Shown piece by piece: positions 27,025-46,668 of a stretch of 64,000 nt of DNA. The notes beneath the pieces were generated by a model. It was not told the origin of the DNA, searched no databases, and saw nothing but the letters and a program-made list of their open reading frames with translations. The DNA is from Desulfobacterales bacterium (GTDB lineage Bacteria; Desulfobacterota; Desulfobacteria; Desulfobacterales; C00003060). Location of the stretch: positions 6,845-70,844 of the forward strand of contig JAUWXF010000001.1 in the NCBI GenBank assembly GCA_030616475.1, in the 5' to 3' direction. The stretch's first letter is position 1. The number at the start of each line of letters is the position of its first letter. The position numbers and the translations under genes were made by a program.

Positions 27025-27059
27025 AAAAAGGGATGCTCGAAAACCAAGCATCCCTTTTC
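27025..27059. terminator. Bidirectional hairpin terminator between convergent genes
   Basis: AAAAAGGGATGCTCGAAAACCAAGCATCCCTTTT: a GGGATGCT/AGCATCCC stem flanked by A- and T-runs. Confidence 0.7.
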
Positions 27060-27091
27060 GTCTGTTCAGAGTTAGCTGAAAGTCCGGCTTG

Positions 27092-28438
27092 CTATTCTTC
27101 CTCTTCTATCTCAACACCGTCCCTTTCATACTGGGCATCTCGTTCTTCATGGGCCTTCTTGACCTCTTCCTCGCTCCACGGTTCGATGATCAGGGCCTCT
27201 GCCACCATCTCCCAGAGATAGAAGACCCTGGCGGTAACATTGAACTCCTTGCTGAGGGCCTTCATGATCTGGTCCCGGCAGTTGTGGCAGGGGGCGCAGA
27301 GCAGTTCGGCGCCTGTCGCGTTGATCTGGTCAGCCTTCCACTTGCCGTAGTCGAGCCGCTCCTTTGTATAAGGCATGGCCCAGGCCCCGCCGCCTGCACC
27401 GCAGCAAATGCCGTTTAGCCCGTGGGGTTCCATCTCAACTATATCTTCGTCATTGAACAAATGCTTGATTATGTACCGATACTCTTCCATGTAGTGCTGG
27501 CCAAAAGACATTTGTGACTTTCTAAAATAATTGCACGGCTCGTGCAGGGTTACCTTCTTGCCGGCAAACTTTGACTTATCTACCTTGATCCTGCCTGTTT
27601 CAAGGTATTCTTTTAAGACGTCATAAATACTTACACATCTGAATTCTTCAAAGGCCTCTGGAAACCATTTCGTGAAACCCAACCGGGTCGCAAAGTATGC
27701 ATGGCCTCATTCCGGATATAGGAGCGTCTTGGCACCTACCTTTCTGGCATTCTCAATCACGCGACCGACCTGCTCTTTCATGGCCTCATCATCACCGGAA
27801 AAAAGGCCCCAGTTGACCCCCTCCCAATTCTGCTTGGGCACCGTCCAGCTCTCTTTGGCCGCATAAAAGATCCGCCACCAGAACATCATGTCGTACGGCT
27901 CGCCCATGGGCTCCTTGGAGTTGATGGTGACAATAATGTTTGCCCCTTCCTTATCGACAGGGCAATAAAATCCCGGGTAGGGAGGATATTCCTCAGCGTC
28001 TTCTTCTTCCAGCTCAACAGTTCCTTCTTCCATCTCCTTGCTCAGATCGGCAAGCAAAAAGAGATAATCGAACTCGGGAATCCCAAGGTTGTTCCCCCTT
28101 TCCAGGTTCATGACAACCCCTTTGTGGATGACACCGGGGACCTTGTCGCGCTCACGATGCGTGCGCGCATTTCTCAAAAGTGACAACAGTTGAACCCCCT
28201 GGGGGCACGCATACTGGCACCGGCCGCACAGGGTGCAGATCCAGGGCCACCGGGAGTCGATCAGCTCCTGTTCCAGGCCCAGAAGCACGGCACGGACCGC
28301 CTTTCTCGGGTCCCAGCCGTCCACGCCCGTGACCGCGCAGCCGCTGGCACAGGTGCCGCACGTAAAGCATACGTCTGCCCACTCGGGCTGTACTGCCAGC
28401 TTGTTCTTTGGTCGTTTGGTCAGGTCTAAAGCTTCCAT
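27092..28438 (-). CDS. HdrD-like FeS/CCG-domain protein with an in-frame TGA (predicted selenocysteine) at 27707..27709
   Basis: Track ORFs 27707..28438 and 27092..27682 share one frame and are joined through ..LLYPE-TGA-GHAYFATRLGFTKW. The N-terminus has CFTCGTCASGC and CTLCGRCQYACP. The C-terminus has GICCGAGGG and CAPCHNC. The hairpin ACCCGGUUGGGU (27677..27688) lies 18 nt 3' of the UGA. Confidence 0.8.
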
Positions 28439-28488
28439 ACAAATCCTCCTAGGTCATCAAGGTTTCGTGGAAAAAATCGCATATACAT

Positions 28489-29376
28489 TTATACATTCTG
28501 GGCCAGCACAACACCGGGCTTGTCGGTTTCGACTATCTCTCCAGGCTTGCCCAGGAAGCTGGCATAATCGACTTCAACGCCTAACCGCTTTGCTGCTCCT
28601 TCGATGATGGGCGGAAGCTGGGGCTGGGTCAAGAGCACAAGGAGGTCAAAGGTTTCGGTCTTTTCACTGCCGTCTGCCTCATACTTGAGTTCAATGTCTT
28701 TGTTTTCGCCCACCTCGGCAGCATCAACCACCGTGCCATTGATGAACGTTATGCCGGAAACCTTGTCCAGGTCGCTGCCTGCACTCGTTTTAAAGGCGTC
28801 CATATTCGGGGATACAAAACTGATTTCGACTCCGTCTATTCTCTTCTGGGCAATGACGGCCTCATTGATCCCAAGGATAAGGGCGGCATCCCGGACCTTA
28901 TCATCAACCGATCCAAAGGTCTGTACAAACCCAATTTTTTTCGGAATCTCACCGTCCTGGGGGCGGAGGATGAACCCGTTGCTCGCCCCTGTGTCGGCCA
29001 GCATCCGCTCCACCTGTAGATCGGTGACCACGTTCATATGTCTGTTGCCATAGCTGCCGGCTATGGGCCTGATCTTTCGCTGCATCCCGGAACTAAGGAT
29101 AACTTCGTCCACTTCGAGGTCAAGATCTTCGTCCTGCATCTCAAAGTTGATCGCCTCAGGCTTGCACTCGGCCCAGCACAGGGCGCATCCGAGACATCGC
29201 CGGCAGGAAAAGCACCGCTTGGCCTCGGCAACGGCCACCTCTTCAGGGAACCCGGTTTCAACTTCCTTAAAGTTTCCCTGACGTTCTTCAACCTCAATCT
29301 CCGGCATCTCTGCCCGCTCGGCCGGAATATCCTGGAAGTCTATGATGTAGCGTCCCTTTTTCTCGTAGATATACAT
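28489..29376 (-). CDS. HdrA C-terminal-half-like protein (second part of a split HdrL-type enzyme)
   Basis: 295-aa ORF. FPEEVAVAEAKRCFSCRRCLGCALCWAEC aligns with FSEEDAQREANRCLNCGICCECMECVQAC of 12344..15757. It starts 1 nt after the stop of 29378..31048. Confidence 0.8.
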   Translation of the reverse strand: MYIYEKKGRYIIDFQDIPAERAEMPEIEVEERQGNFKEVETGFPEEVAVAEAKRCFSCRRCLGCALCWAECKPEAINFEMQDEDLDLEVDEVILSSGMQRKIRPIAGSYGNRHMNVVTDLQVERMLADTGASNGFILRPQDGEIPKKIGFVQTFGSVDDKVRDAALILGINEAVIAQKRIDGVEISFVSPNMDAFKTSAGSDLDKVSGITFINGTVVDAAEVGENKDIELKYEADGSEKTETFDLLVLLTQPQLPPIIEGAAKRLGVEVDYASFLGKPGEIVETDKPGVVLAQNV

Positions 29377-29377
29377 T

Positions 29378-31048
29378 CTACTTCTTCCCTCTCAGATATT
29401 TGTGAATCGATTCCGCTGCGGTTTTGCCACCTGCACAGGCCCGGACAGCAATATTTGCACCTGTGGCAGCATCGCCTGATGCAAACACCCCTTCCACATT
29501 GGTCTCAAAGGTCTTGGGGTTCACCTCAAAATTGAACTTTCTGCCGATCTTAAACCCGTGCTTTTCTTCAACCACACTGGTGTCCGTGACCTGGCCAATG
29601 GCGGCAAAGACGGTATCAGCGTCCATGACAAATTCCGAACCCTCAATCGGCACAGGTCTTCGCCTGCCGCTGGCGTCAGGTTCGCCAAGCTCCATTTTCA
29701 AACATTGCATCCCCACGGCCTTGCCATCCTTGACGACAACTTCCTGGGGGGCTACCAGAAAGTGAAACTTGATCCCCTCGTGCTCTGCCGCGTCTACTTC
29801 CCACGGGCTTGCCGGCATCTCCTTACGGGTTCGACGGTACAGCAGATTGACCTCGTCAAAGCCTACACGGAGACCAGTCCTTGCAACGTCCATGGCCACA
29901 TTGCCGCCGCCAACCACGATCGCTATACCCTTGTTGGGGACCTCATTGCCGAGGCCCGCGTCCCTCAAGAACTTAACACCCTCAAAGACGCCCTCGGCAT
30001 CCTCGTTCTTGACCCGCATGCTCATGCCCATATGGGCGCCAATGGCAACGAGAACCGCGTCATAGTCCTTTCGGATATCATCAAAGCTGATGTCCTTTCC
30101 AATCCGGACACCGCACTTGATCTCCACCCCGTGTTTTTCGACAAATTCAACATCCTTGGCCAGAATCGCCTTGGGAAGCCTGTATTCGGGAATCCCCACC
30201 AGAAACATCCCGCCGGGTTTGGGGAGGGCCTCAAAAACCGTTATGTTATTCTGATATCCGAGCAGTGCCAGGTGATAGGCACAGGTCAACCCGCTGGGGC
30301 CCCCTCCGATAATCGCGATCTTTTCAGGATAGGTCTCATCAGAAACGGTGATCGTGGGCTCAATGTCATTATAAACCTCGTGGTCGGCCACAAAACGCTT
30401 CAAGAAACAGATGCTGATCGGCTCATCCTTGTACCCGCGGTTGCACTCGAACTCGCACGGATGGGGGCACACACGCCCTATACTCAAGGGAAAGGGGAGC
30501 TTCTTTCGGATGGCGGCCAGAGACTCGGCATACTTCCCGTCTGCAATGTAGCCAACATATGTGCGAATATCTAAATTGATCGGACAGGTCCGCTGGCAAA
30601 CAGGCATATCCTCCTTGAACACATTGTAGTTGCCCGAACCTTTGTTGAAAAAATCAACAGCAGTGCGCCATTCAAGGGCCTCATTGTAGTCATCATACAT
30701 GTGGATCGGGCATACCTTGATACACTCCCCACAGTCATCACATTTCTCACGGTCAACCCGGGGTGTTCGACGGTGGATCTTGACCTTGTATTTGCCGTTT
30801 TCCCCGACCAGCGATCGCAGCTCAGCGCTATCTATGACCTGTATTGCCTTGTTTTCTTTTACTGCTGCCAAATCAGGCGCCGTGAAGAAATCACCATCAT
30901 TTATTATCCTGTCCTGCGAAATCCTTTCCCCGCCAATGCTGGGAAAGTCTTCCACCATAAAAACCTTATTGCCGGCATCGGCCTGGGCCAACGCCGCCCT
31001 AACGCCTGCAATACCGCCACCAATGATCAATACATTTTTCTCAGCCAC
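29378..31048 (-). CDS. HdrA-N-terminal-like + NfnB/GltD-like NAD(P)H:FAD module (first part of a split HdrL-type enzyme); GTG start
   Basis: 556-aa ORF with IIGGGIAGVRAAL, CDDCGECIKVCP, CPHPCEFEC, IIGGGPSGL, GGGNVAMD and DASGRRRP. Confidence 0.85.
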   Translation of the reverse strand: MAEKNVLIIGGGIAGVRAALAQADAGNKVFMVEDFPSIGGERISQDRIINDGDFFTAPDLAAVKENKAIQVIDSAELRSLVGENGKYKVKIHRRTPRVDREKCDDCGECIKVCPIHMYDDYNEALEWRTAVDFFNKGSGNYNVFKEDMPVCQRTCPINLDIRTYVGYIADGKYAESLAAIRKKLPFPLSIGRVCPHPCEFECNRGYKDEPISICFLKRFVADHEVYNDIEPTITVSDETYPEKIAIIGGGPSGLTCAYHLALLGYQNNITVFEALPKPGGMFLVGIPEYRLPKAILAKDVEFVEKHGVEIKCGVRIGKDISFDDIRKDYDAVLVAIGAHMGMSMRVKNEDAEGVFEGVKFLRDAGLGNEVPNKGIAIVVGGGNVAMDVARTGLRVGFDEVNLLYRRTRKEMPASPWEVDAAEHEGIKFHFLVAPQEVVVKDGKAVGMQCLKMELGEPDASGRRRPVPIEGSEFVMDADTVFAAIGQVTDTSVVEEKHGFKIGRKFNFEVNPKTFETNVEGVFASGDAATGANIAVRACAGGKTAAESIHKYLRGKK

Positions 31049-31081
31049 TTTTTATCCCTCTTGTTCAACATAGTTTAATGT

Positions 31082-31114
31082 CTCGTAAATTCTACGGCCT
31101 ATTGAAATCATAAC
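31082..31114 (-). promoter_or_regulatory. Motif A copy (degenerate) upstream of 29378..31048
   Basis: CTCGTAAATTCTACGGCCTATTGAAATCATAAC. Confidence 0.3.
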
Positions 31115-31188
31115 TCATCGTTCGCTTAATAAATTCGTACTTAGTACTTAGATTAATTCTTATATGGACCTAAATCTTTATCCCGTTT

Positions 31189-31402
31189 TGGTTTCAGGTT
31201 TCAGGGCACATGTAGGTTTCAGGTGTCAGTGTTCAGGTGTCAGGAAAGTAAAACGGCAGTGCTGAAACCTGATTGTCCCTGACACCTTTATATGTCCTGA
31301 CACCTGACACCTGACACCTCAATCCTCGGGTACGGGCCAGCCTTGAGGGAGGGGTTCATCATTGTCACTGCGTTCTCCCCTGAAACCCGAAACCTGAAAC
31401 CA
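31189..31402. repeat. Stutter-hairpin element of the TCAGGTGTCAGG / CCTGACACCTGA family
   Basis: GGTTTCAGGTTTCAGGG..GGTTTCAGGTGTCAGTGTTCAGGTGTCAGG faces CCTGACACCTGACACCTGACACC and CCTGAAACCCGAAACCTGAAACC. The same family occurs at 6866..6988 and 37533..37604. Confidence 0.8.
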
Positions 31403-31497
31403 GAGGAATATATATATCTTTTTATAGATTCTCAAAATTAACAAAAGTCTATCCCTATTAAGCGAATGATAAGATTCCATTAATCCATTAATTCCAA

Positions 31498-32280
31498 TTA
31501 GGGCGAAGCCCCTAACTTGTATAAAGGTGTATGATCCTTTACACTCTCCATCTCCACAAAGCCACGCCGCTTCAAACCGAGTATGTATTTCAAGGTCTCC
31601 GGAGGAGGAATTTCAAGCTCCTTCGCCAACTGCTTGACTGAGGCCGATTTGTTCTGCAAGGCTGCCAGAATGGAATGGGTGGCCATCTCGTCAATAACAA
31701 TGCCGCTTAAGGTGCGGTTTATCTCGTGCTCGGTAAAAACCTCATGATACTTGTTGCCTGTATCAACGAAGACAGGCTTTTTCCCAACGACCCACCGCAA
31801 TTTGGGCCCTGCAAGGGCCGTTTTGGCAATTTCAAGGTTCTCCTTGAGCTTTGGCAAGGGGACCTTGTCAGCCTCGCCTCCTAGTGGGCCGAGTTCTCTT
31901 ATCTCTGTGGAAAAATCGGTGACATGTTTCACAAAAAGCTCACTCTCCGCAGAAGAGAGGTTGCGAAATGACAACCGTCCCGGATTCATCCCTGCATAAG
32001 CGAGCATTTCCCCGGTCATGTTTATCTTGTGCCTGGCATTAAAATTCCCGCTCACATAATGACATTCGCCAAAAAGACAGCCGAGCACCAACAACCCATC
32101 AAGACCGTGAATAAAGGCATCAGCCATAATGACAGGGTCCATCCTGCCCGTGCACATAAGACGAATGACCCTGATATCCGTTGTGTATTGCATCCTGGAC
32201 ACGCCAGCGAGGTCACCTGCCGAGTAACCTCACCACGTGCAGCAAAAGGTCAATATCTTAGGGGTAAAATCCTCTGCCAT
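31498..32280 (-). CDS. MvhD-like domain (in-frame TGA, predicted Sec, at 32230..32232) fused to a C-terminal winged-helix-like domain
   Basis: ATG at 32278-32280 lies 8 nt after AGGAGG. My translation is [36 protein letters not shown].., continuing in frame into track ORF 31498..32202. The C-terminus ASVKQLAKELEIPPPETLKYILGLKRRGFVEM looks like a wHTH. Confidence 0.75.
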
Positions 32281-32296
32281 CAGGGATCCCTCCTTT

Positions 32297-32321
32297 TATA
32301 AAATCGCTCCGCGATTTTATA
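32297..32321. repeat. Family-5 mini-hairpin (TATAAAATCGC-TCC-GCGATTTTATA) directly 3' of the 32324 stop
   Basis: A perfect 11-bp stem. The same module occurs at 35785..35809, 46631..46655 and 53107..53129. Confidence 0.8.
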
Positions 32322-32323
32322 TG

Positions 32324-34000
32324 TTAAGCTGCCAGAAAACCGTGTATCTGGGCTTGTATTTGTTCGTCCGTAAACGAATTAATACCAAGGGCATGTCGGA
32401 AACAGGTCGCTGCACACACACCGCATCCCTTACATGCCACGGTAATAATGTTAGCCTTACGCCCTTCGTCAGTCTCCTCTATCTCCAGCGCACCGTAAGG
32501 ACAGAGCGCTACGCAGAGGCCACATCCGCGGCAGGCATCCCTGTCTACAAAAGTGGAGATAATCGGTTCGATCTTGATCTCGCCCTGTGCTAACGGAATA
32601 GAGGCACGGGATGCCGCTCCCAGGGCCTGCAAAATGCTTTCACGAACATCCTTGGGATAGTGGGCGCTGCCACAAAGGAAAATACCGTCTGTCGCACAAT
32701 CAAGCGGCCTTAGCTTCACGTGGGCCTCAAGGAAAAACTTGTTTTCATCCAGGGTAACCCTGAAGAGATTGGCAATCTTGACCGCGTCTTCACTGGCTAT
32801 CAGCGGCGTTGAGAGGACGACCATGTCCTGGGGTAGTTCAAGCTCTTTGCCCATAAGGTGATGGAAAACAGTCACCTTATCCTCTTCCACCACCGGCGGC
32901 CTTTCAGGATCATACTTGACAAACCGGACGCCAAGCTGTTTTGCCTTACGCAGCTCCTCTTCGTTCTCAACCCCGTACGCCATGATATCTCGATAGAGGA
33001 TATAAACCTTTGCGGCCGGATTCATCTGCTTGATCAGAATGGCATTCTTGATAGCTACCGCGCAGCATATACGAGAGCAATATTGTCTCTCCGCGCTTCT
33101 CGCCCCAACGCACTGGATCATCACCACATTGTTCCCATCGATCTTGCCGATCTTTAGTTTTTCCTCCAATTCCCACTGGGTAATAACCTTCTGGCCGTCA
33201 TATTGATACATACCTTCCGGCACAAGGTTGCCGGCCCCAGTGGCGATAATAACCACACCCAGCCTGACGTCTTTGGTGGTCCCGTTGGCGCTAAAGGTTA
33301 CATCAAACTTGCCGATAAATCCCTCCACCTTATCAATGGCGGCACCGGTATAAACATCGATATTGGGGTGGTCTTCAGCCTCTTTGATCTTCTTGCTTAT
33401 GACCTCAGAGGCATCCACATCCATTGGGGCCAGCCTGTTCAAAGATCTAAGCATGCCTCCCAGTTCTTTTTCCTTTTCCAGCAGTATCACCGGGAAACCC
33501 CGATTAGCCAGAGACGTGGCGGCTGTCAGACCGGCGATGCCGCCGCCAATAACAAGTGCCCTGACCTCCACCTCCGATGTAATGATCTCCTGAGGTTCAA
33601 GAAGTGCGGCCTTGGCTACACCCATGCGGATAAGATCCCTGGCCTTGGCCATAGCCGGTTCTCTTTCGTTCATGTGGACCCATGAGCATTGGTCTCTGAT
33701 ATTGACCATCTCAAACAGGTATGGGTTGAGCTCCGCCTCTGCACAGATTGACCGGAAAAGGGGCTCGTGGGTACGGGGTGAACAAGAGGCTACCACAACC
33801 CGATTAAGATTCTGCTCCTTGATCCCCTTCTTGATTTCATCGAGACCGACGTCTGAACAGGTATAAAGATTCCATTGGGTAAACACGACATTGGGCAAAG
33901 CAGAGGCATATTCATCCAGTGCCTCTACATCCAGATAGCCTGCGATATTGCTGCCGCACTTACAAACAAATACGCCTATTCTCAATTCTTCTTTTTCCAA
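32324..34000 (-). CDS. QmoB/HdrA-like flavoprotein (N-terminal HdrA-type Cys domain, FAD domain, C-terminal 2x[4Fe-4S])
   Basis: 558-aa ORF with [43 protein letters not shown] and CKGCGVCAATC. Confidence 0.9.
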   Translation of the reverse strand: MEKEELRIGVFVCKCGSNIAGYLDVEALDEYASALPNVVFTQWNLYTCSDVGLDEIKKGIKEQNLNRVVVASCSPRTHEPLFRSICAEAELNPYLFEMVNIRDQCSWVHMNEREPAMAKARDLIRMGVAKAALLEPQEIITSEVEVRALVIGGGIAGLTAATSLANRGFPVILLEKEKELGGMLRSLNRLAPMDVDASEVISKKIKEAEDHPNIDVYTGAAIDKVEGFIGKFDVTFSANGTTKDVRLGVVIIATGAGNLVPEGMYQYDGQKVITQWELEEKLKIGKIDGNNVVMIQCVGARSAERQYCSRICCAVAIKNAILIKQMNPAAKVYILYRDIMAYGVENEEELRKAKQLGVRFVKYDPERPPVVEEDKVTVFHHLMGKELELPQDMVVLSTPLIASEDAVKIANLFRVTLDENKFFLEAHVKLRPLDCATDGIFLCGSAHYPKDVRESILQALGAASRASIPLAQGEIKIEPIISTFVDRDACRGCGLCVALCPYGALEIEETDEGRKANIITVACKGCGVCAATCFRHALGINSFTDEQIQAQIHGFLAA

Positions 34001-34020
34001 TTTGATTCTCCGTGTGTTAG

Positions 34021-34132
34021 TTATTCGTTATTGGTTATTGGTTATTTGATTGTCGATTGTTGATTGTCGACTTTCGATTTGTTTTATTCAATCGTCAATC
34101 GTCAATCGTCAATCCAAAAATCATCAATCCAA
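34021..34132. repeat. Stutter-hairpin element (GATTGTCGATTG arm / CAATCGTCAATC arm)
   Basis: TTGGTTATTTGATTGTCGATTGTTGATTGTCGAC faces CAATCGTCAATCGTCAATCGTCAATCC. The same family occurs at 50900..50997, 59407..59618 and 62934..63008. Confidence 0.8.
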
Positions 34133-34174
34133 AGGTTCACGGTCTCATTCCGCATTCCGCACTCCGCATTCGAT

Positions 34175-35695
34175 TTAGGCTTTTCCCGCAACCGCCTCGG
34201 CGGCCCGGGAAGCAGCACTGCTGGCCTGGGCCACCGACTCTGGTATATCCATCGGCCCCTGGGCGCACCCGCACACAAAGATGCCGGGCACGGTAGTATC
34301 CAAAGGATTGAGCGGATCTGTCTTAAAAAACCTGTTATGGTCTAACTCCACGCCGACCATCTCAGCTATTTTTTCTATCCCCTTTGGAGCTTCACACGCC
34401 ACAGCCAGGATGGCCAGGTCAACTGTTAAGCTCTTTGGGGTCTGAGAGGTGGTCTCTTCATACCAGATAATGGGGTTTTCGTTTTCATCCTGGGTAATTT
34501 CAGCCACACGCCCACGAACGTAATTAAGACCGGTCTTTTCTGCCCCCCGTACCTTGTATTCTTCAAAACCCTTGCCAACCGTGCGCAGGTCCATGTTGAA
34601 GATATATGCATCGGTTCTGGCTTCATGGTCCTTGGCAATCATCGCCTCTTTAATGGAATGCATACAGCAATAACTTGAGCAGTACTTATTAAAGCGAAAG
34701 TCCCGGGAACCCACACACTGGATAAAGGCCAGCCTGGTGGCAACGTCAAACTTCTCCGCCTTGGCCTTCAGGGCCTCCAGTTTCTTGGTCGCCTCCTGTA
34801 CGCTCTCATACTGCTTTGCCCATTTTGCAAACTCATCCCCGTCCGATATGTTCCCTGCCGTGAATTCCTTATAGAAATCAGCAGATGACTTCTTGTGTTT
34901 CTTTTCGTATTTACCGAGGGTCTTTGTTGCCTTCTTCAGCTTCTTCTCCCCGCTGTGGATAAGCTCGTGATCTCTTAGATCCGAGAGCCTTTCCACGTGG
35001 CCTTCCGTGGGGCCGCTGGCGCTCAGCAGGCGTTCAAATTCGAGGGCATTGATCACATTTGTAATCCGCCCATAGCCGTATTCCGGCAACTTCGCGGCAT
35101 CAAAAAGGTCATACCCGACCGCCAAAACGATAGCGCCCACCTTTAACTCAAGGATTTTATCCTCCTGCTTGTAATCTATGGCTTTGGCCTGGCATATCTT
35201 TTCACAGACACCGCACTTTTTCCCCTTTTGAAAGGTCCGACAATGAACGGCATCTATACAGAAGGTAGAAGGGATACCCTGAGTATAGTACTTGTAGATC
35301 GCCTTTCGCTTCCCCAGCCCCATGTTAAATTCATCTGGTACCGTGGTTGGACATTTTTCGGCACATGCGCCGCACCCCGTACACAAATCTTCGTCAACGT
35401 AGCGGGCCTTTTTCCTCACGGTAACTGCAAAATCACCATTGCTGCCCGTTACTTTTTCCACAACGCTGTATGCCAAGAGATTGATCTTAGGATGCCGACC
35501 GACATCCTGTAACTTTGGCCCGATAATTCACATAGCACAGTCATTTGTGGGAAAGGTCTTGTCCAACTGGGCCATCTTGCCGCCGATGCAAGGGAGCTTT
35601 TCGACCATATGGACCTGAAGGCCCATATCCGCCAGATCAAGCGATGCCTGCATACCGGCTATCCCCCCGCCAATGACCAATATATCTTTGCTCAC
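34175..35695 (-). CDS. QmoA/HdrA-like flavoprotein with an in-frame TGA (predicted Sec) at 35528..35530
   Basis: GTG at 35693-35695 lies 9 nt after GGAGG. My translation is [48 protein letters not shown].., continuing in frame into track ORF 34175..35476. The hairpin AGGAUGUCGGUCGGCAUCCU (35489..35508) lies 19 nt 3' of the UGA. Confidence 0.85.
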
Positions 35696-35737
35696 GACAA
35701 CCTGCCTCCTTACCCGGTTTCCTGATACTTGCTCAAC

Positions 35738-35762
35738 AACTTGATAGTATAGGAATTTCCTT
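35738..35762 (-). promoter_or_regulatory. Motif B (AACTTGATAGTATAGGAATTTCCTT) in the leader of the Sec-hdrA/qmoA-like gene
   Basis: The same 25-mer with one substitution occurs at 45143..45167, upstream of the 41845..45126 gene. Confidence 0.4.
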
Positions 35763-35768
35763 TTTCAA

Positions 35769-35809
35769 GCGGCGTAGCCGCGTTATATAAAATCGCGTAG
35801 CGATTTTAT
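35769..35809. repeat. Family-5 double mini-hairpin (GCGGC-GTA-GCCGC + ATAAAATCGC-GTA-GCGATTTTAT) overlapping the 35806 stop
   Basis: GCGGCGTAGCCGCGTTATATAAAATCGCGTAGCGATTTTAT. Copies occur at 46615..46655 and, inverted, at 53107..53147. Confidence 0.8.
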
Positions 35810-36936
35810 CCACCGTTCATGGCAGAAACGACCATTTCAGTGAGATCTTTAATCTTGATATCAATACCCTCTATAAAACTTGCAGCACAACTAAAATGAA
35901 TATTACACTTGGGACAGGCAGTAATCAAAGTGTCCGCCCCGGTTGCCATCGACTCTTTCAATCTGTTGCCTTGAATCTCCTTTGAGCAGGTAGAACAGTT
36001 CATCCATCCGGTAGTCCCGCAGCAAACAGAATTTTCGCCGTTCCTTTCCATCTCCACAAAGGAGGCCGCAACCCCGTTAATGATGTCGCGCGGGCTCTCA
36101 TATATACCTGCCAGCCGCCCCAGCCGGCACGGATCCTGGTACGTCACCACGCCATTCGATTTTTCTAATGTTAATTCCCCGGCCTTTAACCTTTCCGCCA
36201 GAAAATCGTAGAAGTGAATAACCTCAAAATCGAGATCTCCGAAATACTTTGTATAGTAATTCTTGAAGATATAATATCCTTCAGGGCAATGGAAGATGAC
36301 CTTCTTACTCCCCGCCTCTTTGATTACTTCAATATTGGCCGCAGCCAACTTCTTGAAGGTTTCAACCTCGCCATTCCAGAGCATATCATGTCCGCAGCAT
36401 TTTTCGTCGTTGCTAACCACCGGCTCAATGCCCAATTTATTCAAAATCTTGATGACATTTCGTCCGATATCTAATGGCTGCGAAGGAAAATTTGCAAAAA
36501 TGACATTGAAATAGGGTAAGCAGCCCACAAAATAGAAATACTCCCCCTTGTCTGCAATACTGCCTGCCTCTTTTGCCCAGGTAATCCTGTCCTGCTTGAT
36601 TCCGGATGACTGTATCTCCATAATCGATTGGAACATACCACTGTGTGCAGGGCTGCCCTTATTGCCAAGCCTCAGTGCCTCCTCTCTGATCCCCCTGGCA
36701 AATTCCAGGTAGTCGATGTTAGCCGGGCACCTGTGGGTACACCGTGCACAGGTCAGACAGGACCATACATCGGGATCCGTCAGGAAATCTTCGGCCTTGC
36801 CCATAAGAGCCTTTTCAACCATCAGGCGGGGCGAGAATCCGGGTGAATACCGCGCCACCGGGCAGCTACCTGTACAAACGCCGCAGTCCAAACAGTAGTA
36901 AGCCTTGGTTTCATCTACTAATGCTTCAATGTTCAT
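35806..36936 (-). CDS. HdrD-like protein (HdrC-type 2x[4Fe-4S] + two CCG domains)
   Basis: 376-aa ORF with CLDCGVCTGSCP, CLTCARCTHRCP, EKCCGHD, SVCCGTTG and CPKCN. Confidence 0.9.
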   Translation of the reverse strand: MNIEALVDETKAYYCLDCGVCTGSCPVARYSPGFSPRLMVEKALMGKAEDFLTDPDVWSCLTCARCTHRCPANIDYLEFARGIREEALRLGNKGSPAHSGMFQSIMEIQSSGIKQDRITWAKEAGSIADKGEYFYFVGCLPYFNVIFANFPSQPLDIGRNVIKILNKLGIEPVVSNDEKCCGHDMLWNGEVETFKKLAAANIEVIKEAGSKKVIFHCPEGYYIFKNYYTKYFGDLDFEVIHFYDFLAERLKAGELTLEKSNGVVTYQDPCRLGRLAGIYESPRDIINGVAASFVEMERNGENSVCCGTTGWMNCSTCSKEIQGNRLKESMATGADTLITACPKCNIHFSCAASFIEGIDIKIKDLTEMVVSAMNGG

Positions 36937-37018
36937 TCTTTAGCCCCCATTGGTATTCTCTGGGCAATCGATTCATCTCATCCACCCAATACTCCATCAC
37001 TCCATTACTCCAATTCAA

Positions 37019-37438
37019 CTAAGCGGCTAGCCGCAGCGAAGACATCCCCAGATCCTTGATCTTCTGGGTAAAAGAGGTGACGACTTCGGCAAAACGGCCC
37101 CCTTCGGCAGACGAAACCCACTCCAGGGCCAGGCGCTCATTGTCGATGCCCAGCAGGGCCAGCAATTGACGCGTCATCTCAATCATCAGTGTTGCTTTCT
37201 TGTTACCTTCCAGGTAACGACAGTCGCCGATGTGTCAGCCACTCACCAGTACCCCATCGGCGCCCAGTTGAAACGCCTTCAGAATGAAATTAGGGTCGAC
37301 CCGGCCAGAGCACATCAGCCGGATCACTCGAATGTTGGGGGGATATTGCATGCGGCTGACTCCAGCCAGATCTGCCGCGCCATAGGCGCACCAGTTGCAG
37401 CAAAAAGCAATAATTGTTGGCTCGTACTCTGCACTCAT
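37019..37438 (-). CDS. mvhD: MvhD-like protein with an in-frame TGA (predicted Sec) at 37235..37237
   Basis: Track ORF 37235..37438 ends ..GVLVSG. My continuation is [74 protein letters not shown], with the stop at 37019. The hairpin GUUACCUGGAAGGUAAC (37202..37218) lies 16 nt 3' of the UGA. Confidence 0.85.
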
Positions 37439-37532
37439 GATCTCTCTTCCTTCATATTGACCGAGTGTAAATCACGGCTGTTGGCAATGAGAAAATCCGT
37501 GTCCGTCTGCTGCGTATTTAGTTTTGGGGAAA

Positions 37533-37604
37533 AGGTGTCAGGCTTCGGGTTTCAGGTGTCAGGATTGAGAAACTTAAAGAGCTGAAACCTGAACACTGAC
37601 ACTT
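37533..37604. repeat. Stutter-hairpin element of the TCAGGTGTCAGG family
   Basis: GGTGTCAGGCTTCGGGTTTCAGGTGTCAGG faces CTGAAACCTGAACACTGACAC. Confidence 0.75.
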
Positions 37605-37630
37605 GGCCATTGAACTCAATAACCAACAAT

Positions 37631-37668
37631 CTTGATTTACACCCATATTCTTGATTTACACCCATATT
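37631..37668. repeat. Perfect 19-nt tandem direct repeat (CTTGATTTACACCCATATT x2) just 3' of the 37672 stop
   Basis: Copies lie at 37631..37649 and 37650..37668. An inverted partial copy GTGTAAATCA lies at 37465..37474. Confidence 0.9.
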
Positions 37669-37671
37669 AAT

Positions 37672-40600
37672 CTACCCGCCGAGGCCGGCCTCGACCATGG
37701 CAAGCACTTGGCTGTCCATAAAATGACGAAGGCCTGCGGCCCCGGTAGGACAGGCCACCGAGCAAGCACCGCAGCCCTTGCACAACGCCCCCTCAACATA
37801 GGCTGCTCTCCTGCCCTCTTCGCGTTCCGCAACAGCAATGGCACCAAAAGGGCAGGCATCTTCACACTTGCCGCAACCGCGGCACAAAATCTCATTTACG
37901 TGGGATATAACGCCTTCGATCGTGAGTTCATCCTTGGAGAGTACTACCGACGCCCTCGAAGCTGTTGCTTTGGCTTGCGCGATGCTTTCATCAATCGGCT
38001 TCGGGTAATGGGCCATGCCAGCCAGGAAAATCCCTTCTGTAGCGGACTCTACCGGCCTGAGTTTGGCATGGGCCTCCATGAAGAACCCTTCCTCGTTGAG
38101 GGCCAGCTTATACATCTGGGCCAGGGGTGTGTTATCTCTGGGTACAATGGCACACGCGAGGACCACCAGGCCAGGTTTAATCTCAATATCCCGACCGAGT
38201 ATAGGATCTTTGACCGCCACTGAGATCCCGTCTCCGTTTTTCTTAACATCAGGTTTTTGCTCCAGATCGTACCTGATAAAAATGACACCGCGGCTTCTCG
38301 CCTCTCTATATAGCTCCTCTCGCTGGCCATAGGTGCGAATGTCCCGGTAAAGGATATAGATATCCATTTCCGGGTTCATTTCCTTTAGTTCCAAAGCTGA
38401 ATGGATTGTATGGGTGCAGCAGAGCTTGGAGCAGTAAGGCCTTTCCGGTTCCCGTGATCCCACACACTGGATAAATACGGCGGTTTTGGCCTTTGTTATC
38501 CGTTCTTCTTTACTGGCAACGGCCGAATCGAGGTCCAGGTGGGTCAAGACCCTGTCATCTTCGCCATAAAGGTATTCACTCGGCTTGTATTCCTCGGCAC
38601 CGACCGCCACGATCACAGCCCCATGTTTCAGGGTAACATCTGTGCCGTTCTGTGAGACGGTGGTTTCAAAGTTTCCAACAAATCCGGTGGCCTCTTTGAT
38701 ATTCGATCCTTTGTACACATCAATCAAGGGATGATCCTCCACCTGGCGCACCATCTCTTCAACGCCATCTGCAATCTTCTCTCCCCTCCACGTGCTGACG
38801 AGCTTAAGGGCGTTTCCACCCAGTTCATTTGCTTGCTCCACAAGATATGTGTGGAAGCCCTGATCGGCGAGACCAAGAGCCGCTGCCATACCGGAGACAC
38901 CGCCTCCTACCACAAGGGCCTTGTGGTCCACCGAGATGGTAGGCTGTGGTAATGACTGTATCAATCGAGCCCTGGCAACCGCCATGCGCACCAGATCCTT
39001 TGCCTTCTCGGTAGCCTTCTCCCCTTCCTTGAAGTGGACCCAGGAGCACTGATTGCGAATATTGGCCATTTCGAACAGATACTGGTTCAGACCTGCATCC
39101 TTCAGGGTCTCCTGAAACATGGGCTCATGGGTCCTGGGTGAGCAGGAAGCCACCACCACCCGGTTCAACCCCTCCTGTTTGATCACCTCTGTTATCTTCT
39201 CCTGAGTATCCTGCGAACAGGTGAAGAGGTTATGCTCAGCGTAGACCACCGCGGGGAGTGTTCGGACGTATTCGGTCACCGCGGGCACGTCCACGATTCC
39301 CCCGATGTTGATACCACAGTTGCACACGAAGACTCCGACCCGTGGTTCTTCAGAGGATACGTCTTTCTCTTCAGGATAGCTCTTTTCCTTAACCAGCGTG
39401 CCCCGGGCATCCGACAGAATTTCTTCTGCCCCGCAGGCAGCACCACTCGCTTCCATAACCGAATAGGGAATATCCTTGGGTTCCAGGAAGGTTCCGCAGA
39501 CGTAAACCCCCTTTCTGGATGTCTCTACAGGAGTAAATGTTGCTGTCTCAACAAAATGGTCCTTGTCCAGGTCGATATCGAGACGTTTGGCCAGCTCCTT
39601 GAGCTCTTTGGGAGTTTCAAGTCCTACGGAAAGTATCACCATATCGAATTTCTCGACCTGGATGTTACCGCTTTCATCCGCATACCGAAGGATCAGGTCA
39701 TTGGTATCAGGGTCCTCTTCAATGGAATGGATCCGGGAGCGAACGTACCTGACCCCCACCTCTTCCCTGGCACGGTTATAATATTTCTCGAAGTCCTTAC
39801 CATAGGTCCTCATGTCCATGAAAAAGATAGCCGTGTCGAGTGGATGCTCGGAATGTTCCTTGGCAATAACCGCCTCTTTAGTGGCATACATACAACAGAC
39901 CGATGAACAATAGGGATTGTCACATTGGTTCATATCCCTGGAACCGATGCACTGGAGCCAGGCAATCTTTTCAGGTTCCTTCAGGTCCGAGGGCCGGTGG
40001 ACGTGCCCCAGATAGGGGCCTGTGGCGCTCAAAATGCGCTCAAATTCCATACTGGTAACCACATTAGGAAATTCGGCATACTTGTAAACATCCAGGTTGC
40101 CCGGATTGAATACATCATTGCCCAGGGCCAGGATTACTGCTCCTGCTTCCAGCTCCGTCCTTCTCGGTTCATCATCATAGCGAATTGCTTCAGCCAGACA
40201 GACCTTTTCACATAGCCCGCAGCCGATGCACAGGTCCCTATCAATGGTATAGGCCAGGGGTACGGCTTGAGCGTACTTGATGTAAATGGCGGCCCTGAAA
40301 TCAAAACCGCGGTTGAATTCATTCCCGGCGGTCACAGGGCAGGCCTGGGCGCACACCCCACAGCCGGTACATCTAGCAGGATCAATGTGCCGGGGAACAT
40401 TCTTTAGTGTTGCCTTGAAATGTCCGGGTTCGCCTTCAAGGGATTCAACCTGGGTGTTCGTAATGATATTGATGTTAAGATGCCGGCCGACCTCGACCAG
40501 TTTGGGCGAGATAAGTCACATGGTGCAATCATTTGTTGGAAAGGTCTTATCCAACTGTGCCATTAATCCGCCGATGGTCGGCGATCGATCAACCAGATGC

Positions 40601-40695
40601 ACGTAATAACCTGAGTCTGCCAGATCGAGGGAAGCCTGCATCCCTGCGATCCCGCCCCCGATGACAATCACGCTACCTATCTTCTCATTTGTCAT
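37672..40695 (-). CDS. Double HdrA-like flavoprotein (QmoA-like + QmoB-like fusion, 1007 aa) with an in-frame TGA (predicted Sec) at 40516..40518
   Basis: ATG at 40693-40695. A codon-by-codon check gave [52 protein letters not shown].., in frame with track ORF 37672..40356. The hairpin GAGGUCGGCCGGCAUCUU (40477..40494) lies 21 nt 3' of the UGA. Confidence 0.9.
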
Positions 40696-40724
40696 GACAA
40701 TCCCTCAATATCGCTTTTTAAAAC

Positions 40725-40941
40725 AAATCCGAAATCCGTATATCGTACTGTTCTCAAGGCGTGAGCCGCAAATCCGAAACAAATCCGACACGAAGTGAAG
40801 CCTGCGCTCAATTCAAATGTCTAAATGTTCAAAACTCTATTTACGCTGAGTGCTCTCCTTGAGCTATTCGGGTTTGTTTTGAATTTTGTATTTTGGTCAT
40901 TTGATATTGTTTCGAATTTCGTGCTTCGAATTTCGAATTTT
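40725..40941. repeat. Roughly 220-bp composite repeat element, copy 1
   Basis: AAATCCGAAATCCGTATATCGTACTGTTCTCAAGGCGTGAGCCGCAAATCCGAAACAAATCCGACACGAAGTGAAGCCTGCGCTCAATTCAAAT ... TTTTGGTCATTTGATATTGTTTCGAATTTCGTGCTTCGAATTTCG. It is largely alignable with 61989..62206, and its ends are imperfect inverted repeats. Confidence 0.85.
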
Positions 40942-41013
40942 CCCTGTTGTTTCTGTGAAATTTAATTTCTGAGAATCTTTAGCATATTGGAACGTTATTT
41001 TGGAGTCCTCATA

Positions 41014-41775
41014 CTATGCTGCCAGAGCGACGAACTTTGGGGTAGTCTCGTCATACCCCTTTATCTCCGCCTGGCCGGAATTCTTCAAATGACTCAACCA
41101 GAAAGAAACCCTTGGCTTCGGCAATCCGATCCTTCCGGAAATCTCCCGCACTAACTGGGGACTTTCCTTGATTGCCTCCAAGACCAGGGCCTTTTCATAC
41201 TCCTCTTCAATGGCCTGGTGAAGGAGTCTTGTGTACTCTTCCTCGTTCAGTTTTTCATGATAGACGTTCTCACGCTCGGTGAGCTGCCTGCTCATTCCCA
41301 TCAGCCATCGGATGCGAGGCGAGGTCAGGGTTTGTTCAACAGCAGCCAGCGGAAGCTTAAATTGGTCCAGATCAAAAGGCCCCAATTCCCGAGTCAAGTC
41401 ACTAAATTGCGTCACATAATCTGCGAACAACTGCCCTTCAGCCGAACTGACCCAACGAAGCTGCATCCGATTTCGTCCAATGCCGGAGAGATCGAGCAGA
41501 TATTCCACCACATGCATCCTTTTAGAAGCATAGACATTACCATCCAGGTAATGACAGTCTCCAAGGTGTCATCCGGACACAAAGACGCTATCAAACCCGC
41601 TCTTTAAACCGTTCACTATATAAAGGGGATCAACCCTGCCGGAACACATCACCCGAATTACACGGATCGCAGGGGGATATTGGAGGCGGGATACACCCGC
41701 TAAATCTGCACCTGCATAGGCGCACCAGTTGCACAAAAATGCGAGGATTTTCGGTTCAAATGGTTCACTCATCAC
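41014..41775 (-). CDS. MvhD-like domain (in-frame TGA, predicted Sec, at 41569..41571) fused to a C-terminal winged-helix-like domain
   Basis: Track ORFs 41569..41775 and 41014..41517 share one frame: ..SVFVSG-TGA-HLGDCHYLDGNVYASKRMHVVEYLL... The hairpin CAUUACCUGGAUGGUAAUG (41535..41553) lies 15 nt 3' of the UGA. The C-terminus SPQLVREISGRIGLPKPRVSFWLSHLKNSGQAEI looks like a wHTH. Confidence 0.85.
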
Positions 41776-41844
41776 TTCTCTCCTGCTGTACCCGTTAGGA
41801 GTTTCATTTACTCCAACACTCCATTACTCCAATACTCCATCGCA

Positions 41845-44800
41845 TTACCCCCTTGCACCGCCTGCCTGAATCGCTGCAAATATCTGCCGATCGCGGAAAT
41901 GCTGCATATCAATAGCCTTTTGCGGGCAAGCCGCGGCACAGCTCCCACAACCCTTACATACTGCTGAGATATTTTCGGCTCTATACCCTTTCCCGGGTAT
42001 CTTCTCAAGGCGTATAGCGCCAAAAGGACACGATGTCTCACACAAGCCGCATCCAATACAGAGATCCTGGTCAACGACCGATACAATAGGTTCTATTTCC
42101 ACATATTTTTGCGCCAGGATGGTAGCAGCTCGAGCTGCTGCCGCCTCAGCCTGGGCGATGCTTTCCTCAATCGGTTTGGGGTAATGGGCCATGCCGCACA
42201 CAAAAATACCATCCGTGGCAAAGTCCACAGGCCGGAGCTTCATGTGAGCCTCGAGGAAGAAATTGTCCTGGCTGATGGACACCTTGAAGATCTGGGCCAA
42301 TTCCTCAATCCCACGGGTATAGATGGCTGTGGCCAGGGTGATAAAGTCCGGCTTGAGGGTGATGGGCCGCTGGAGCACGTGATCCATTACCGTAACCTCC
42401 AGGGTGCCTCCCTCGGTTTCCCTGACGACCGGTTTATTCTCCAGGTCATAGCGAATAAAAATCACACCGAGGGCCCGGGCTTCTTTGTACAGATCTTCAC
42501 GTTCCCCGTAGGTTCGCATGTCCCGGTAGAGGATGTAGACATCTATGTCCGGGTTGCGTTTCTTTAGCTCCACCGCCTTCTGAACCGAGAAGGTGCAGCA
42601 AATCTTGCTGCAGTGAGGGCGCTCCGGTTCCCGGGAGCCGACACATTGAATGAAGACTGCACTGCCGGCGTTTTTGACCTGATCACTCTCCCATGCCTTG
42701 TCAAGCTCGTGCCACCGGAAGACCCGGTCATTCTTGCCGTAAAGGTACTCATCCGGCTTGATAGAATGGGCGCCGGTTGCCAGCACTGTTACGCCGTGCT
42801 CCACCTCGCGAACGTCCCCTCCACCATTCAGAGTGATGGCTGTCTTGAAGTTGCCGATGAAACCGGAAGCCTCCTTGACCTTAGCGTTGAGGTGCACCTC
42901 GATATTGTCGTGCCCGGTTACGTCATCTACGAGCTTGCTCACAAACTCCGGGACACCTTCGCCCTTCCACGTTTTCTTTAGCTTCAGGGCATGGCCACCC
43001 AGGTGTTCCTTCTCCTCGACAATGTGCACCTTGAATCCTTGCTGGGCCAGATTGAGGCCGCACACCATCCCGGCCACACCACCGCCCACCACCAAAGCCG
43101 CCGGGGTAACCGGCGCCGAGGGCACGGGCAGGGGCTCGATGAGTGAAGCCCGGGAAACTGCCATCCGCACCAGGTCCTTGGCCTTTTCAGTGGCAGCATC
43201 AGGATCACTCGAATGCACCCAGGAGCACTGGTCGCGGATATTGGCCTGCTCGAAAAGGTACTTGTTCAGGCTGCTGTTGCGCAAGGTTTCCTGGAAGAGC
43301 GGCTCATGGGTGCGCGGCGAGCAGGCGGATACTACCACCCGGTTGAGGTTCTGCTCCTTGATTACTTCAACCAATTGCTCAAGGGCATCCTGGGAACAGG
43401 AGAAGAGGTTCTCCTGAACATAGGTCACGTTCGGAAGCGTTTTGGCGTATTCGGCCACTTCAGGAACCCGCACCACACCGCCTATGTTCACCCCGCAATT
43501 GCAAACAAAAACACCGATACGGGCTGGCTCAGCACTGATATCCCGCTCCTCGGGGAAAGTCTTTTCCTTTACCAGGGTGTGACGCGCCCCGGCAAGCCTG
43601 CTCCCTGCCGCACCCGCGGCAGCCGAGGCCTCCATCACCGAATAAGGAATATCTTTGGGGCCCTGCAAGGCTCCGCAGGCATAGATCCCGGGAACAGACG
43701 TATTCACAGGGGCAAAGCTGGCGGTGCGGGCAAATCTGTAATGATCCAGATCGATTCCCAGCTTCTCTGCCAGCTCTGCTGCACCAGGAGGGGACTCAAG
43801 CCCGACAGAGAGCACCACCATGTCAAACTCTTCTGTTTCGGCCCTGCCGTCTTCCGTAGCGTAGCGAATCTTCAGGTTATCTGAACCGGCCACAGGGTCA
43901 ATAGTGTGCACCCGGCAGCGTATGAAACGGACACCACTTTCTTTTGCCCGGTTGTAATACTGATCGAATTCCTTCCCATAAGTGCGCATGTCCATGAAAA
44001 AGATGGCCGTCTCCAGCCCGTCTTTGGCATGCTCCCTGGCAATGACCGCCTCCTTGATTGCGTACATGCAACAGACACCTGAACAGTAAGCATTGTCACA
44101 GCGGTTGATGTCTCGGGAGCCCACGCACTGGAGCCAGGCAATCTTTCTGGGGGCATGGGACGCTGCCTCTTTCTCTTTTAGCGCGGCGAGCTTGCCGTCC
44201 GAGGCGGCAAACTTTTCAGCCAGCGAGGCCCAGCTTTTATAATCCTCGTCCTCGGCTCCCGCTTTGAACTGCTCGACTACCTCGGCAGTGGGCTTGCCGT
44301 GCTTTTTTTCCAGTTGTTTCAACTGGCGGTCCAGTTTTTTCAGCCCTTTCTCCGCCTTAACAATCTCTTCCCGGAGGGCCAGGTCAGAAGGTCTCTCCAC
44401 GTGACCGGCAGTAGGACCGCCTGCACTCAAGAGTCGTTCAAACTCCATGGAGGTGATCACATTGGGTTGACTGGCATAAGCGTAAGCCTCAAACTGGCGG
44501 GGATCGAAGGTCTTAAAGCCGGTGGCCAGGATAACGGAACCGACTTCCAGGTTCAGAAGCTGCTCTTTTTGCTCGAAGTCAATCGCATCGGAGGGACAGA
44601 GCTTGGCACAGACCTCGCACTTTTTTCCGTCGCCCAAAAGGCGGCACTTCTCAGCGTCGATAGCATAGCCCGACGGAATCGCCTGGGGATAGAGCTTGTA
44701 AATTGCCTTGCGCTTGGCAAGGCCTTCATTGAATTTGTCCACCACCACCTTCGGGCACTTTTCCGCACAAGTGCCACAGGCGGTGCATTTGTCCAGATCG

Positions 44801-45126
44801 ACGTACCGGGGTTTCTCCCGAACCGTTACCTGGAAATGGCCTTCTTCACCGGTGACGCTTTCCAGCTCCGCAGAGGTAATCAGATTGATATTGAGATGCC
44901 GGCCGACCTCGACCAGCTTGGGGGAGATGATTCACATGGCGCATTCGTTGGTGGGGAAGGTCTTATCAAGCTGTGCCATGCCCCCACCGATAGCGGAGTT
45001 TTTTTCCAGAAGATGAACATAATAGCCTGAATTGGCCAGATCCAGGGAAGCCTGCATCCCGGCTATGCCACCGCCCACGACTAAAACCGACCCGACGGCC
45101 CCTTTGCCAGGTTCTTTGTTTTTCAT
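41845..45126 (-). CDS. Double HdrA-like flavoprotein (QmoA-like + QmoB-like fusion, 1093 aa) with an in-frame TGA (predicted Sec) at 44932..44934
   Basis: Track ORFs 44932..45126 (..[11 protein letters not shown]) and 41845..44748 share one frame. The bridging translation is [65 protein letters not shown]. The hairpin GAGGUCGGCCGGCAUCUC (44893..44910) lies 21 nt 3' of the UGA. Confidence 0.9.
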
Positions 45127-45142
45127 GTTTTCTCCTGCCTCG

Positions 45143-45167
45143 AACTTGATAGTATGGGAATTTCCTT
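45143..45167 (-). promoter_or_regulatory. Motif B (AACTTGATAGTATGGGAATTTCCTT) in the leader of the 41845..45126 gene
   Basis: Matches 35738..35762 with one substitution. Confidence 0.4.
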
Positions 45168-45448
45168 CCGTTATTCCAATTACCGGAAAGCCACTAAATT
45201 CGCGCCTCGGCAGCGCGTCCCCACCTAAAATTCCTGTGCTTCAAACCTTGACCCCCATAGCATTCAGGCTGATCGTTGTCAAGCAAAAAAAAGGCAAAGA
45301 TCTGGCGTAGCCTCTCCAGGCCTGAGACCAGCCGCGACGGTCGCGGCAAGCCCGCCCTGCCTGCCCTGGACTCCGGCTCGTAGAGGCACGAGCCTACGCC
45401 TCGGAGAGCGCGATAGCCTTAGCATTGATGTCCGTCCCCATCATCCCG

Positions 45449-46655: not shown

Positions 46656-46668
46656 AAAGGGTTAAGCT

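Follow-up and report, generated by a model that had tools for sequence, protein, structure and literature searches.

How should a bacterial gene cluster be read when seven of its genes are each interrupted once by UGA? This question is raised by a 64-kb window (64,000 nucleotides, the whole stretch that was analyzed) on contig JAUWXF010000001.1 of an uncultured Desulfobacterales bacterium, in which seven genes of the Hdr/Mvh type lie within 18 kb on the minus strand (g1 to g7; Table 1). The seven UGAs are very probably selenocysteine (Sec) codons, read by standard bacterial decoding in three known protein families: HdrA (g3, g5, and g7), MvhD/VhuD/FrhD (g2, g4, and g6), and the Fe-S oxidoreductase-like family called 'GlpC' (g1). 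This reading is drawn from the DNA and its comparison with homologs. In this organism, the proteins would belong to flavin-based electron-transfer modules that resemble Hdr.

The evidence is direct as far as it concerns the codons, the alignment of Sec with cysteine (Cys), the conservation of TGA, and the covarying downstream hairpins. Each TGA is flanked in frame by two open stretches, as a preliminary description of the window had reported, and each of the seven minus-strand translations is a continuous protein with a single TGA interruption. The open stretch 5' of the TGA at 32230 is only 16 codons long. Apart from the seven TGAs, the 16,527 codons of the window's 36 Pfam-supported genes contained no in-frame stop. 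Eight of these 36 genes terminate at TGA; thus, TGA is an ordinary stop codon here, and its genome-wide reassignment was rejected. A window-wide scan for TGA-joined open reading frames (ORFs) that might hold an eighth Sec codon gave only out-of-frame noise beyond the known seven. The large subunit of a [NiFe] hydrogenase (54555-56117) was also considered as an eighth selenoprotein and was rejected because it carries Cys (SFDPCLACAIH) and has a true TGA stop at its end.

What do homologs carry at these positions? All seven TGAs occupy alignment columns with a conserved Cys. The Cys motifs that had been named in paralogs of the same window are all present (DCAACI at 15184 and 150, DHCGMC at 10384, GCHIGDCHY at 11960, and NWCTY at 12116). 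When related loci were translated with TGA as U, the HdrA and MvhD sites showed U in close Desulfobacterales orthologs and C in distant bacterial and archaeal homologs. The nearest relatives are metagenome-assembled genomes (MAGs) of uncultured Desulfobacteria/Desulfobacterales, with protein identity up to 95% (for the neighboring gene o4). Look-ups of the exact proteins matched only short Logan contigs of one sample, SRR14872670.

The three HdrA-like proteins contain HdrA-type FAD (flavin adenine dinucleotide) and Fe-S domains according to Pfam, and their top NCBIfam models are HdrA2 and HdrA. Homology to HdrA is further seen in matches to the PDB chains 9sfi_A (E=1.9e-124) and 5odc_A (E=5.5e-121). 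Residue 60 of g5 was aligned with X197 of Methanococcus maripaludis HdrA (9sfi_A) and with Cys in 5odc_A. X197 stands for Sec197; this residue is next to the bifurcating FAD and apparently forms a selenylsulfide (PMC13518236). In g3, g5, and g7, the UGA takes the place of the last Cys codon in the motif FPTxDC-x-x-C (CxxU), the position equivalent to Sec197. In these proteins, Sec would stand in for Cys as the second member of the C-x-x-C pair adjoining the bifurcating FAD. Together with the adjoining o3, g3 forms a split version of the double-length architecture of g5 and g7; o3 is 44% identical to their C-halves. Equivalence to the methanogen-type HdrABC-MvhAGD heterodisulfide reductase is not borne out, as all NCBIfam HdrA models scored under their cut-off (875 against 1100 bits for g5). 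Neither an adjoining hdrB/hdrC pair nor MvhA/G hydrogenase genes were found in the cluster, where the neighbors are HdrD-like and GltD-like.

In g2, g4, and g6, the FlpD domain (PF02662) was scored at 142.7, 184.1, and 161.3 bits, respectively, with a gathering cut-off of 22.3. Their first NCBIfam models are VhuD/HdrA2 C-terminal, with scores under the equivalog cut-offs. The two Sec positions used by these proteins coincide with both X residues in VhuD from M. maripaludis (9sfi_K): C-x-x-U near the N-terminus in g2, and G-U-x-x-x-C-x-Y/F in g4 and g6. The TGA of g2 is retained in four related loci (L004, L008, L029, and L107), and other homologs have Cys. Each MvhD, a small [2Fe-2S] electron-transfer subunit with two conserved Cys, would have Sec in place of one of them. 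As a separate observation, the C-terminal extensions of g2 (31498-31890) and g6 (41014-41380), about 115-125 amino acids (aa) long, show sub-threshold similarity to winged-helix domains (HTH_IclR, HTH_5, and TrmB; E about 1e-3). In two Promethearchaeota loci, L021 (JAUVXW010000034.1) and L022 (JBHLNZ010000055.1), HdrA was also seen to have TGA at the CxxU site, and the MvhD of L022 has TGA at both Sec sites.

The last of the seven, g1, combines Fer4_8 (E=3.9e-10) and CCG (E=5.3e-10) domains in Pfam. Its top NCBIfam models are HmcF, TmcB, and DsrK, every score being far under the cut-off. In the column of its Sec, 13 of 14 full-length database homologs have Cys (PE-C-GHAYY) and the remaining one has Ser. 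Among metagenomic homologs, all of the 80 closest (61-82% identity, essentially full-length matches) have TGA in this column. The motif table of a 2026 review lists UGH for the Fe-S oxidoreductase-like selenoprotein family and CxxU for HdrA and MvhD (PMC13188914). g1 shows the dicluster and CCG architecture of the UGH family, the U-G-H motif with Cys in homologs, and a hairpin with covariation. Sec would stand in for the conserved Cys of a degenerate first CCG domain. In L004 (JAGMBW010000098.1, about 15.7-16.5 kb), a locus with an o4 that is 86% identical, just one g1-like sequence was found, and it is of the Cys type (motif PDCGGGSYGC), with only 32% identity to g1 over 112 residues.

These alignments bear on one alternative, namely that the TGAs are real stops and the genes are pseudogenes or naturally split, giving 14 separate polypeptides. 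In its favor, TGA does serve as a normal stop here, the Sec machinery is only presumed, and gene callers treat the codons as stops. Splitting by gene callers had been foreseen for all seven genes; it holds for g1, which is called as two genes (243 aa and 186 aa) in a public assembly, and is demonstrated for that gene alone. However, seven independent stops would have fallen exactly on conserved Cys codons, and the TGA has been conserved in orthologs along with both flanking frames (80 of 80 for g1). Furthermore, g2 would be reduced to a 16-residue peptide, the HdrAs would lose the Cys pair next to FAD, and the stops are followed on their 3' side by structured hairpins with compensatory changes. 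It is thus extremely improbable that translation simply ends at these codons.

If the seven codons are read as Sec, each would be expected to act together with a selenocysteine insertion sequence (SECIS) element. The in-ORF hairpin, 14-19 nt after the UGA, would bind SelB carrying Sec-tRNA(Sec), and Sec would then be inserted at the UGA in place of chain termination. Hairpins of 5-8 bp with G/U-containing loops were found at this distance at six sites, all but that of g2. The preliminary description had claimed the same number of hairpins, with a spacer of 15-21 nt. The loop of the g4 hairpin is UGGAA in the alignment register and a GGA triloop according to RNAfold.

Support for these hairpins comes mainly from comparison. 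In the g1 class (29 distinct orthologs), 97.9% of cells in the helix are paired and compensatory changes occur in three of five pairs. This covariation was reached by none of 500 shuffles, and slid controls did not have any. In one two-sided change, C-G has become U-A, with the G-to-A substitution turning Gly into Ser. The class of MvhD site 2 (g4, g6, and eight others, n=10) is 92.9% paired with three compensatory pairs, a result reached by 2 of 500 shuffles. Pairing is complete (100%) in the g3 class (eight orthologs), where the changes are one-sided only, and the g5/g7 class hardly varies (-9.5 to -12.5 kcal/mol); the g5 hairpin is also present in L002, L012, and L078. The HdrA sets are small, and none of their pairs showed a compensatory double change. 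Over the region +10..+48, the fold of U-sites is more stable than that of C-sites, in HdrA (-10.3 versus -5.9 kcal/mol, p=6e-5) as well as in MvhD site 2 (-8.7 versus -6.1 kcal/mol, p=0.003). The downstream hairpins are missing from Cys-type homologs. At the archaeal U-sites (L021 and L022), no downstream in-frame hairpin was found, which fits the location of archaeal SECIS elements in the 3' untranslated region (3'UTR).

The same hairpins weigh on another explanation, that of non-specific readthrough by a near-cognate Trp or Cys tRNA, or of sequencing or assembly errors of TGY. The point in its favor is that TGA differs by a single base from a Cys codon (TGY). But many independent assemblies carry the identical TGA, so that assembly error is excluded, and hairpins that are conserved 3' of TGA and missing from Cys-type homologs would not be expected from readthrough or error. 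This explanation is scarcely credible.

Several observations nevertheless weigh against Sec insertion at all seven sites. Neither selA, selB, selC, nor selD lies in the 64-kb window. At MvhD site 1, the folding energy of +10..+48 does not differ between U-sites and C-sites. The hairpin of g2 (CUGG-CGUGU-CCAG, 32195-32207) is weak, with 4 bp, -2.3 kcal/mol, and no covariation support. Single-sequence folding z-scores of 63-nt stretches are modest (-0.1 to -2.1), and comparative evidence was therefore used instead. Lastly, the Rfam SECIS families were not matched at the gathering score in the whole window, nor at E<=10 in 27000-45200. For g2, a 9-bp hairpin that starts within the UGA is not conserved in orthologs. 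A candidate SECIS region lies further downstream (Table 1), includes the 4-bp hairpin, and is near-invariant in five orthologs, third codon positions included: one of eight is variable in +24..+47, versus four to seven of eight in other bins.

ARAGORN found no tRNA-Sec in the window, nor in 60 related loci (L002-L068 without the archaeal loci). Because the window holds no sel gene or tRNA-Sec, decoding by SelB and tRNA(Sec) is something that we infer, and the redox roles proposed above for Sec are likewise put forward as expectations. The comparison with Cys- and Sec-containing homologs, which had been proposed as a check, came out in favor of Sec: TGA is conserved in close relatives with Cys in distant ones, experimentally established Sec sites coincide with those of the window, and hairpins follow the bacterial UGAs but not the codons of Cys-type homologs.

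Could a recoded UGA receive an amino acid other than Sec? The codons might be recoded through the same kind of hairpin, with some or all of them receiving Cys by way of a selC* tRNA(Cys) with the anticodon UCA, SelB*, and CysRS*, perhaps only under selenium scarcity. selC*-selB*(-cysS*) loci are known in Desulfobacterales, and SelB*-dependent delivery of Cys-tRNA has been hypothesized (Mukai et al., 2017, PMC5389517; review PMC7609411). The selC* system has been reported in subgroups of Desulfobacterales and Syntrophobacterales, and the closest relatives of the window are Desulfobacterales/Desulfobacteria MAGs. The hairpins also fall into distinct classes (tetraloops GGUC, AGGU, and GGUU; pentaloops UGGAA and UGGAU; the unclear g2 element), which would permit discrimination by two factors. 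However, no selC*, SelB*, or CysRS* component lies in the window, target codons of SelB* are defined in neither PMC5389517 nor PMC7609411, and the seven sites are the classical Sec sites of their families. Every genome reported with selC* had a complete Sec apparatus as well (PMC5389517), and Sec decoding would therefore still coexist with Cys recoding. Recoding to Cys is accordingly regarded as very unlikely. A facultative scheme, with Sec inserted by SelB when selenium is available and Cys by selC* tRNA(Cys-UCA)/SelB*/CysRS* otherwise, the hairpin classes partitioning the sites, is also quite unlikely. If it were true, the cluster would be a natural test bed for the hypothesized dual Sec/Cys recoding.

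Table 1. Positions of the interrupted genes, their UGA codons and candidate SECIS elements, and of other features of the window.
Feature	Coordinates	Strand	Details
g1, Fe-S oxidoreductase-like (HdrD/HmcF/TmcB/DsrK-type)	27092..28438	(-)	448 aa; Sec residue 244; ..LLYPE-U-GHAYF..
g2, MvhD/FlpD with ~120-aa C-terminal extension	31498..32280	(-)	260 aa; Sec residue 17; FCCTW-U-GY; VhuD Sec site 1
g3, N-terminal half of split long HdrA	34175..35695	(-)	506 aa; Sec residue 56; TNDCAM-U-IIGPKL
g4, MvhD	37019..37438	(-)	139 aa; Sec residue 68; VSG-U-HIGDCRY; VhuD Sec site 2
g5, long (double) HdrA	37672..40695	(-)	1007 aa; Sec residue 60; NDCTM-U-LISPKL
g6, MvhD with ~115-aa C-terminal extension	41014..41775	(-)	253 aa; Sec residue 69; VSG-U-HLGDCHY; site 2
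g7, long (double) HdrA	41845..45126	(-)	1093 aa; Sec residue 65; NECAM-U-IISPKL
o1, HdrA-fragment protein	28489-29376	(-)	no Sec; Pfam, NCBIfam
o2, GltD-like NAD(P)H flavoprotein with HdrA-like N-terminus	29378-31048	(-)	no Sec; Pfam, NCBIfam
o3, C-terminal half of split long HdrA	32324..34000	(-)	no Sec; partner of g3
o4, HdrD-like Fer4_8 + CCG protein	35806..36936	(-)	Cys type; context gene
UGA (putative Sec) codon, g1	27707..27709	(-)	
UGA (putative Sec) codon, g2	32230..32232	(-)	
UGA (putative Sec) codon, g3	35528..35530	(-)	
UGA (putative Sec) codon, g4	37235..37237	(-)	
UGA (putative Sec) codon, g5	40516..40518	(-)	
UGA (putative Sec) codon, g6	41569..41571	(-)	
UGA (putative Sec) codon, g7	44932..44934	(-)	
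SECIS-like hairpin, g1	27676..27689	(-)	GACCC-GGUU-GGGUU; 17 nt after UGA
Candidate SECIS region, g2	32186..32214	(-)	+19 to +47
SECIS-like hairpin, g3	35489..35508	(-)	AGGAUGUC-GGUC-GGCAUCCU; 19 nt after UGA
SECIS-like hairpin, g4	37202..37218	(-)	GUUACC-UGGAA-GGUAAC; 16 nt after UGA
SECIS-like hairpin, g5	40482..40500	(-)	CUGGUCG-AGGU-CGGCCGG; 15 nt after UGA
SECIS-like hairpin, g6	41535..41553	(-)	CAUUACC-UGGAU-GGUAAUG; 15 nt after UGA
SECIS-like hairpin, g7	44898..44917	(-)	GCUGGUCG-AGGU-CGGCCGGC; 14 nt after UGA
Second Hdr/Mvh cluster	5328-15757		all-Cys
Rnf operon	46669-53110		
[NiFe] hydrogenase	53564-56117		Cys-type

Four further genes of the cluster do without Sec (o1 to o4). Judging from gene spacing, o1 and o2 are probably co-transcribed with g1. 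The non-coding spacers of the cluster each hold short tandem arrays of 7-8-nt units, and all 22 rows reported by Tandem Repeats Finder lie in spacers (28482-28497, 31137-31492, 34020-34171, 36991-37012, 37533-37668, 40877-40940, 41808-41840, 45350-45533, and 46185-46208). The units include GGTTTCA, AGGTGTC, CCTGACA, GTTATTG, GATTGTC, TCAATCG, CATTCCG, TTTCGAA, and ACTCCATC. At 31189-31404, upstream of o2, heptamer arrays build a large inverted repeat. Array words also form a hairpin at 37533-37606, which accounts for a spurious Rfam match to mir-981; the matches to SSRC8_2 (same intergenic hairpin) and sR2 were likewise rejected as spurious. The arrays could be binding arrays of a regulator, or elements resembling repetitive extragenic palindromes or short tandemly repeated repeats (REP/STRR-like).

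A palindrome, ATAAAATCGCG-NNN-CGCGATTTTAT, occurs three times (32292-32322, 35785-35809, and 46633-46661). Two of the copies come directly behind the o3 and o4 stops; the third precedes the rnfC start by 8 nt. The palindrome may act as an operator or as a terminator-like hairpin working in both directions. Scans of the window for promoter and terminator consensus sequences gave nothing above chance.

The second Hdr/Mvh cluster of the window is flanked by sigma-54 two-component systems. It contains a Cys-type double HdrA-like protein of 1158 aa (7067-10543, minus strand), whose residues 192-298 are an inserted response-regulator receiver domain (PF00072, E=9.5e-33). The motif context FDKTFPTLDCAACIGTPKMVSV is identical at 15184 and 150 (regions 12344-15757 and 1-150, minus strand), which suggests that a second HdrL-like copy (HdrA + GltD fusion) starts at the window's left edge. 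Between the Cys-type and the Sec-type Hdr clusters lies a block of lower G+C content (16000-24300; 43-45% versus about 51-55% elsewhere), which encodes two pairs of histidine kinase and sigma-54 response regulator. The wider window also has hypD, hypF, and a putative hypE. The last is an AIR (aminoimidazole ribonucleotide) synthase-like gene (56956-57978), which ends in PRIC and stands beside hypD and hypF; it would appear to encode HypE rather than SelD. Cys paralogs in the window have 39-52% identity to the Sec forms. A close pairing of Sec and Cys isoforms between the two Hdr/Mvh clusters was rejected, because the identities reach only these values.

Why does the correct annotation of such a cluster matter? 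Splitting at UGA hides seven proteins (three long HdrA, three MvhD, and one of the HdrD type) at the center of this uncultured Desulfobacterales lineage's cytoplasmic electron-transfer network, and fragment calls undercount the lineage's dependence on selenium. The comparative sets, especially the 80 TGA-containing homologs of g1, provide clean family-specific consensus hairpins for SECIS elements, which could improve the automated calling of selenoproteins in metagenomes. Selenocysteine biology as it is known is unchanged by the finding.

How does the cluster compare with known systems? As in the fdhF-type SECIS of E. coli, the candidate elements are in-ORF hairpins that closely follow the UGA and have G/U in the apical loop. 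They differ in their shorter stems (5-8 bp), their family-specific sequences, and the lack of a match to an Rfam model. The GGUC tetraloop of the g3 hairpin is presumably that of the fdhF minihelix.

HdrA, FrhD/MvhD, and the 'GlpC' Fe-S oxidoreductase are listed families of bacterial selenoproteins. Sec-containing genes of these families have been found clustered in deltaproteobacterial operons, with fusions and splits of HdrA (PMC1794560; PMC1976440; PMC2702500; PMC13188914). For instance, Syntrophobacter fumaroxidans has seven Sec-HdrA, eight Sec-FrhD, and three Sec-GlpC (Zhang et al., 2006, PMC1794560). The HdrAs of the window resemble known Sec-HdrA (9sfi; Zhang et al., 2006, PMC1794560) in fold family and in the position of Sec in FPTNDC-x-x-U. 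The double hdrA-hdrA form (g5 and g7) and the hdrA_N/hdrA_C split (g3 and o3) are also seen in deltaproteobacterial operons (PMC1794560). Unlike in archaea such as Methanococcus and Methanocaldococcus, where SECIS elements are in the 3'UTR, the candidate elements lie inside the ORF. Compared to known Sec-HdrA systems, HdrB/C and MvhA/G are replaced in the neighborhood by HdrD-like CCG proteins (o4 and g1) and, in o2, by a GltD-like NAD(P)H module. In the VhuD/MvhD/FrhD family, archaeal FrhD has two Sec residues and bacterial homologs use either one (Zhang and Gladyshev, 2007, PMC1976440). One Sec site per protein is likewise used here, and the difference is that users of site 1 (g2) and site 2 (g4 and g6) occur in one cluster. 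g1 is like the Fe-S oxidoreductase-like (GlpC) family in its Fer4_8 and CCG domains, its U-G-H Sec, and its clustering with Sec-type hdrA and mvhD. It differs in its place, last in the cluster behind o2 and o1, and in the absence of frhG and frhA.

The genome of Desulfobacterium autotrophicum HRM2 encodes Sec in hdrA1/2, hdrL1/3, hdrD4, and mvhD1/2/3/5, with Cys paralogs alongside (Strittmatter et al., 2009, PMC2702500). HRM2 has multiple hdrA/hdrL loci with mvhD after each, and Rnf is present (PMC2702500). An all-Cys Hdr/Mvh cluster and Rnf are found in the window too, but the organism is a different one, and the best matches are MAGs of uncultured Desulfobacteria. Seven Sec codons in 18 kb are in line with the operons of four selenoprotein genes in the literature. 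The families, their clustering in operons, the fusions and splits of HdrA, and the use of either site in MvhD were all described between 2006 and 2009. Thus, the cluster is a further example of a known arrangement, and its main value lies in annotation.

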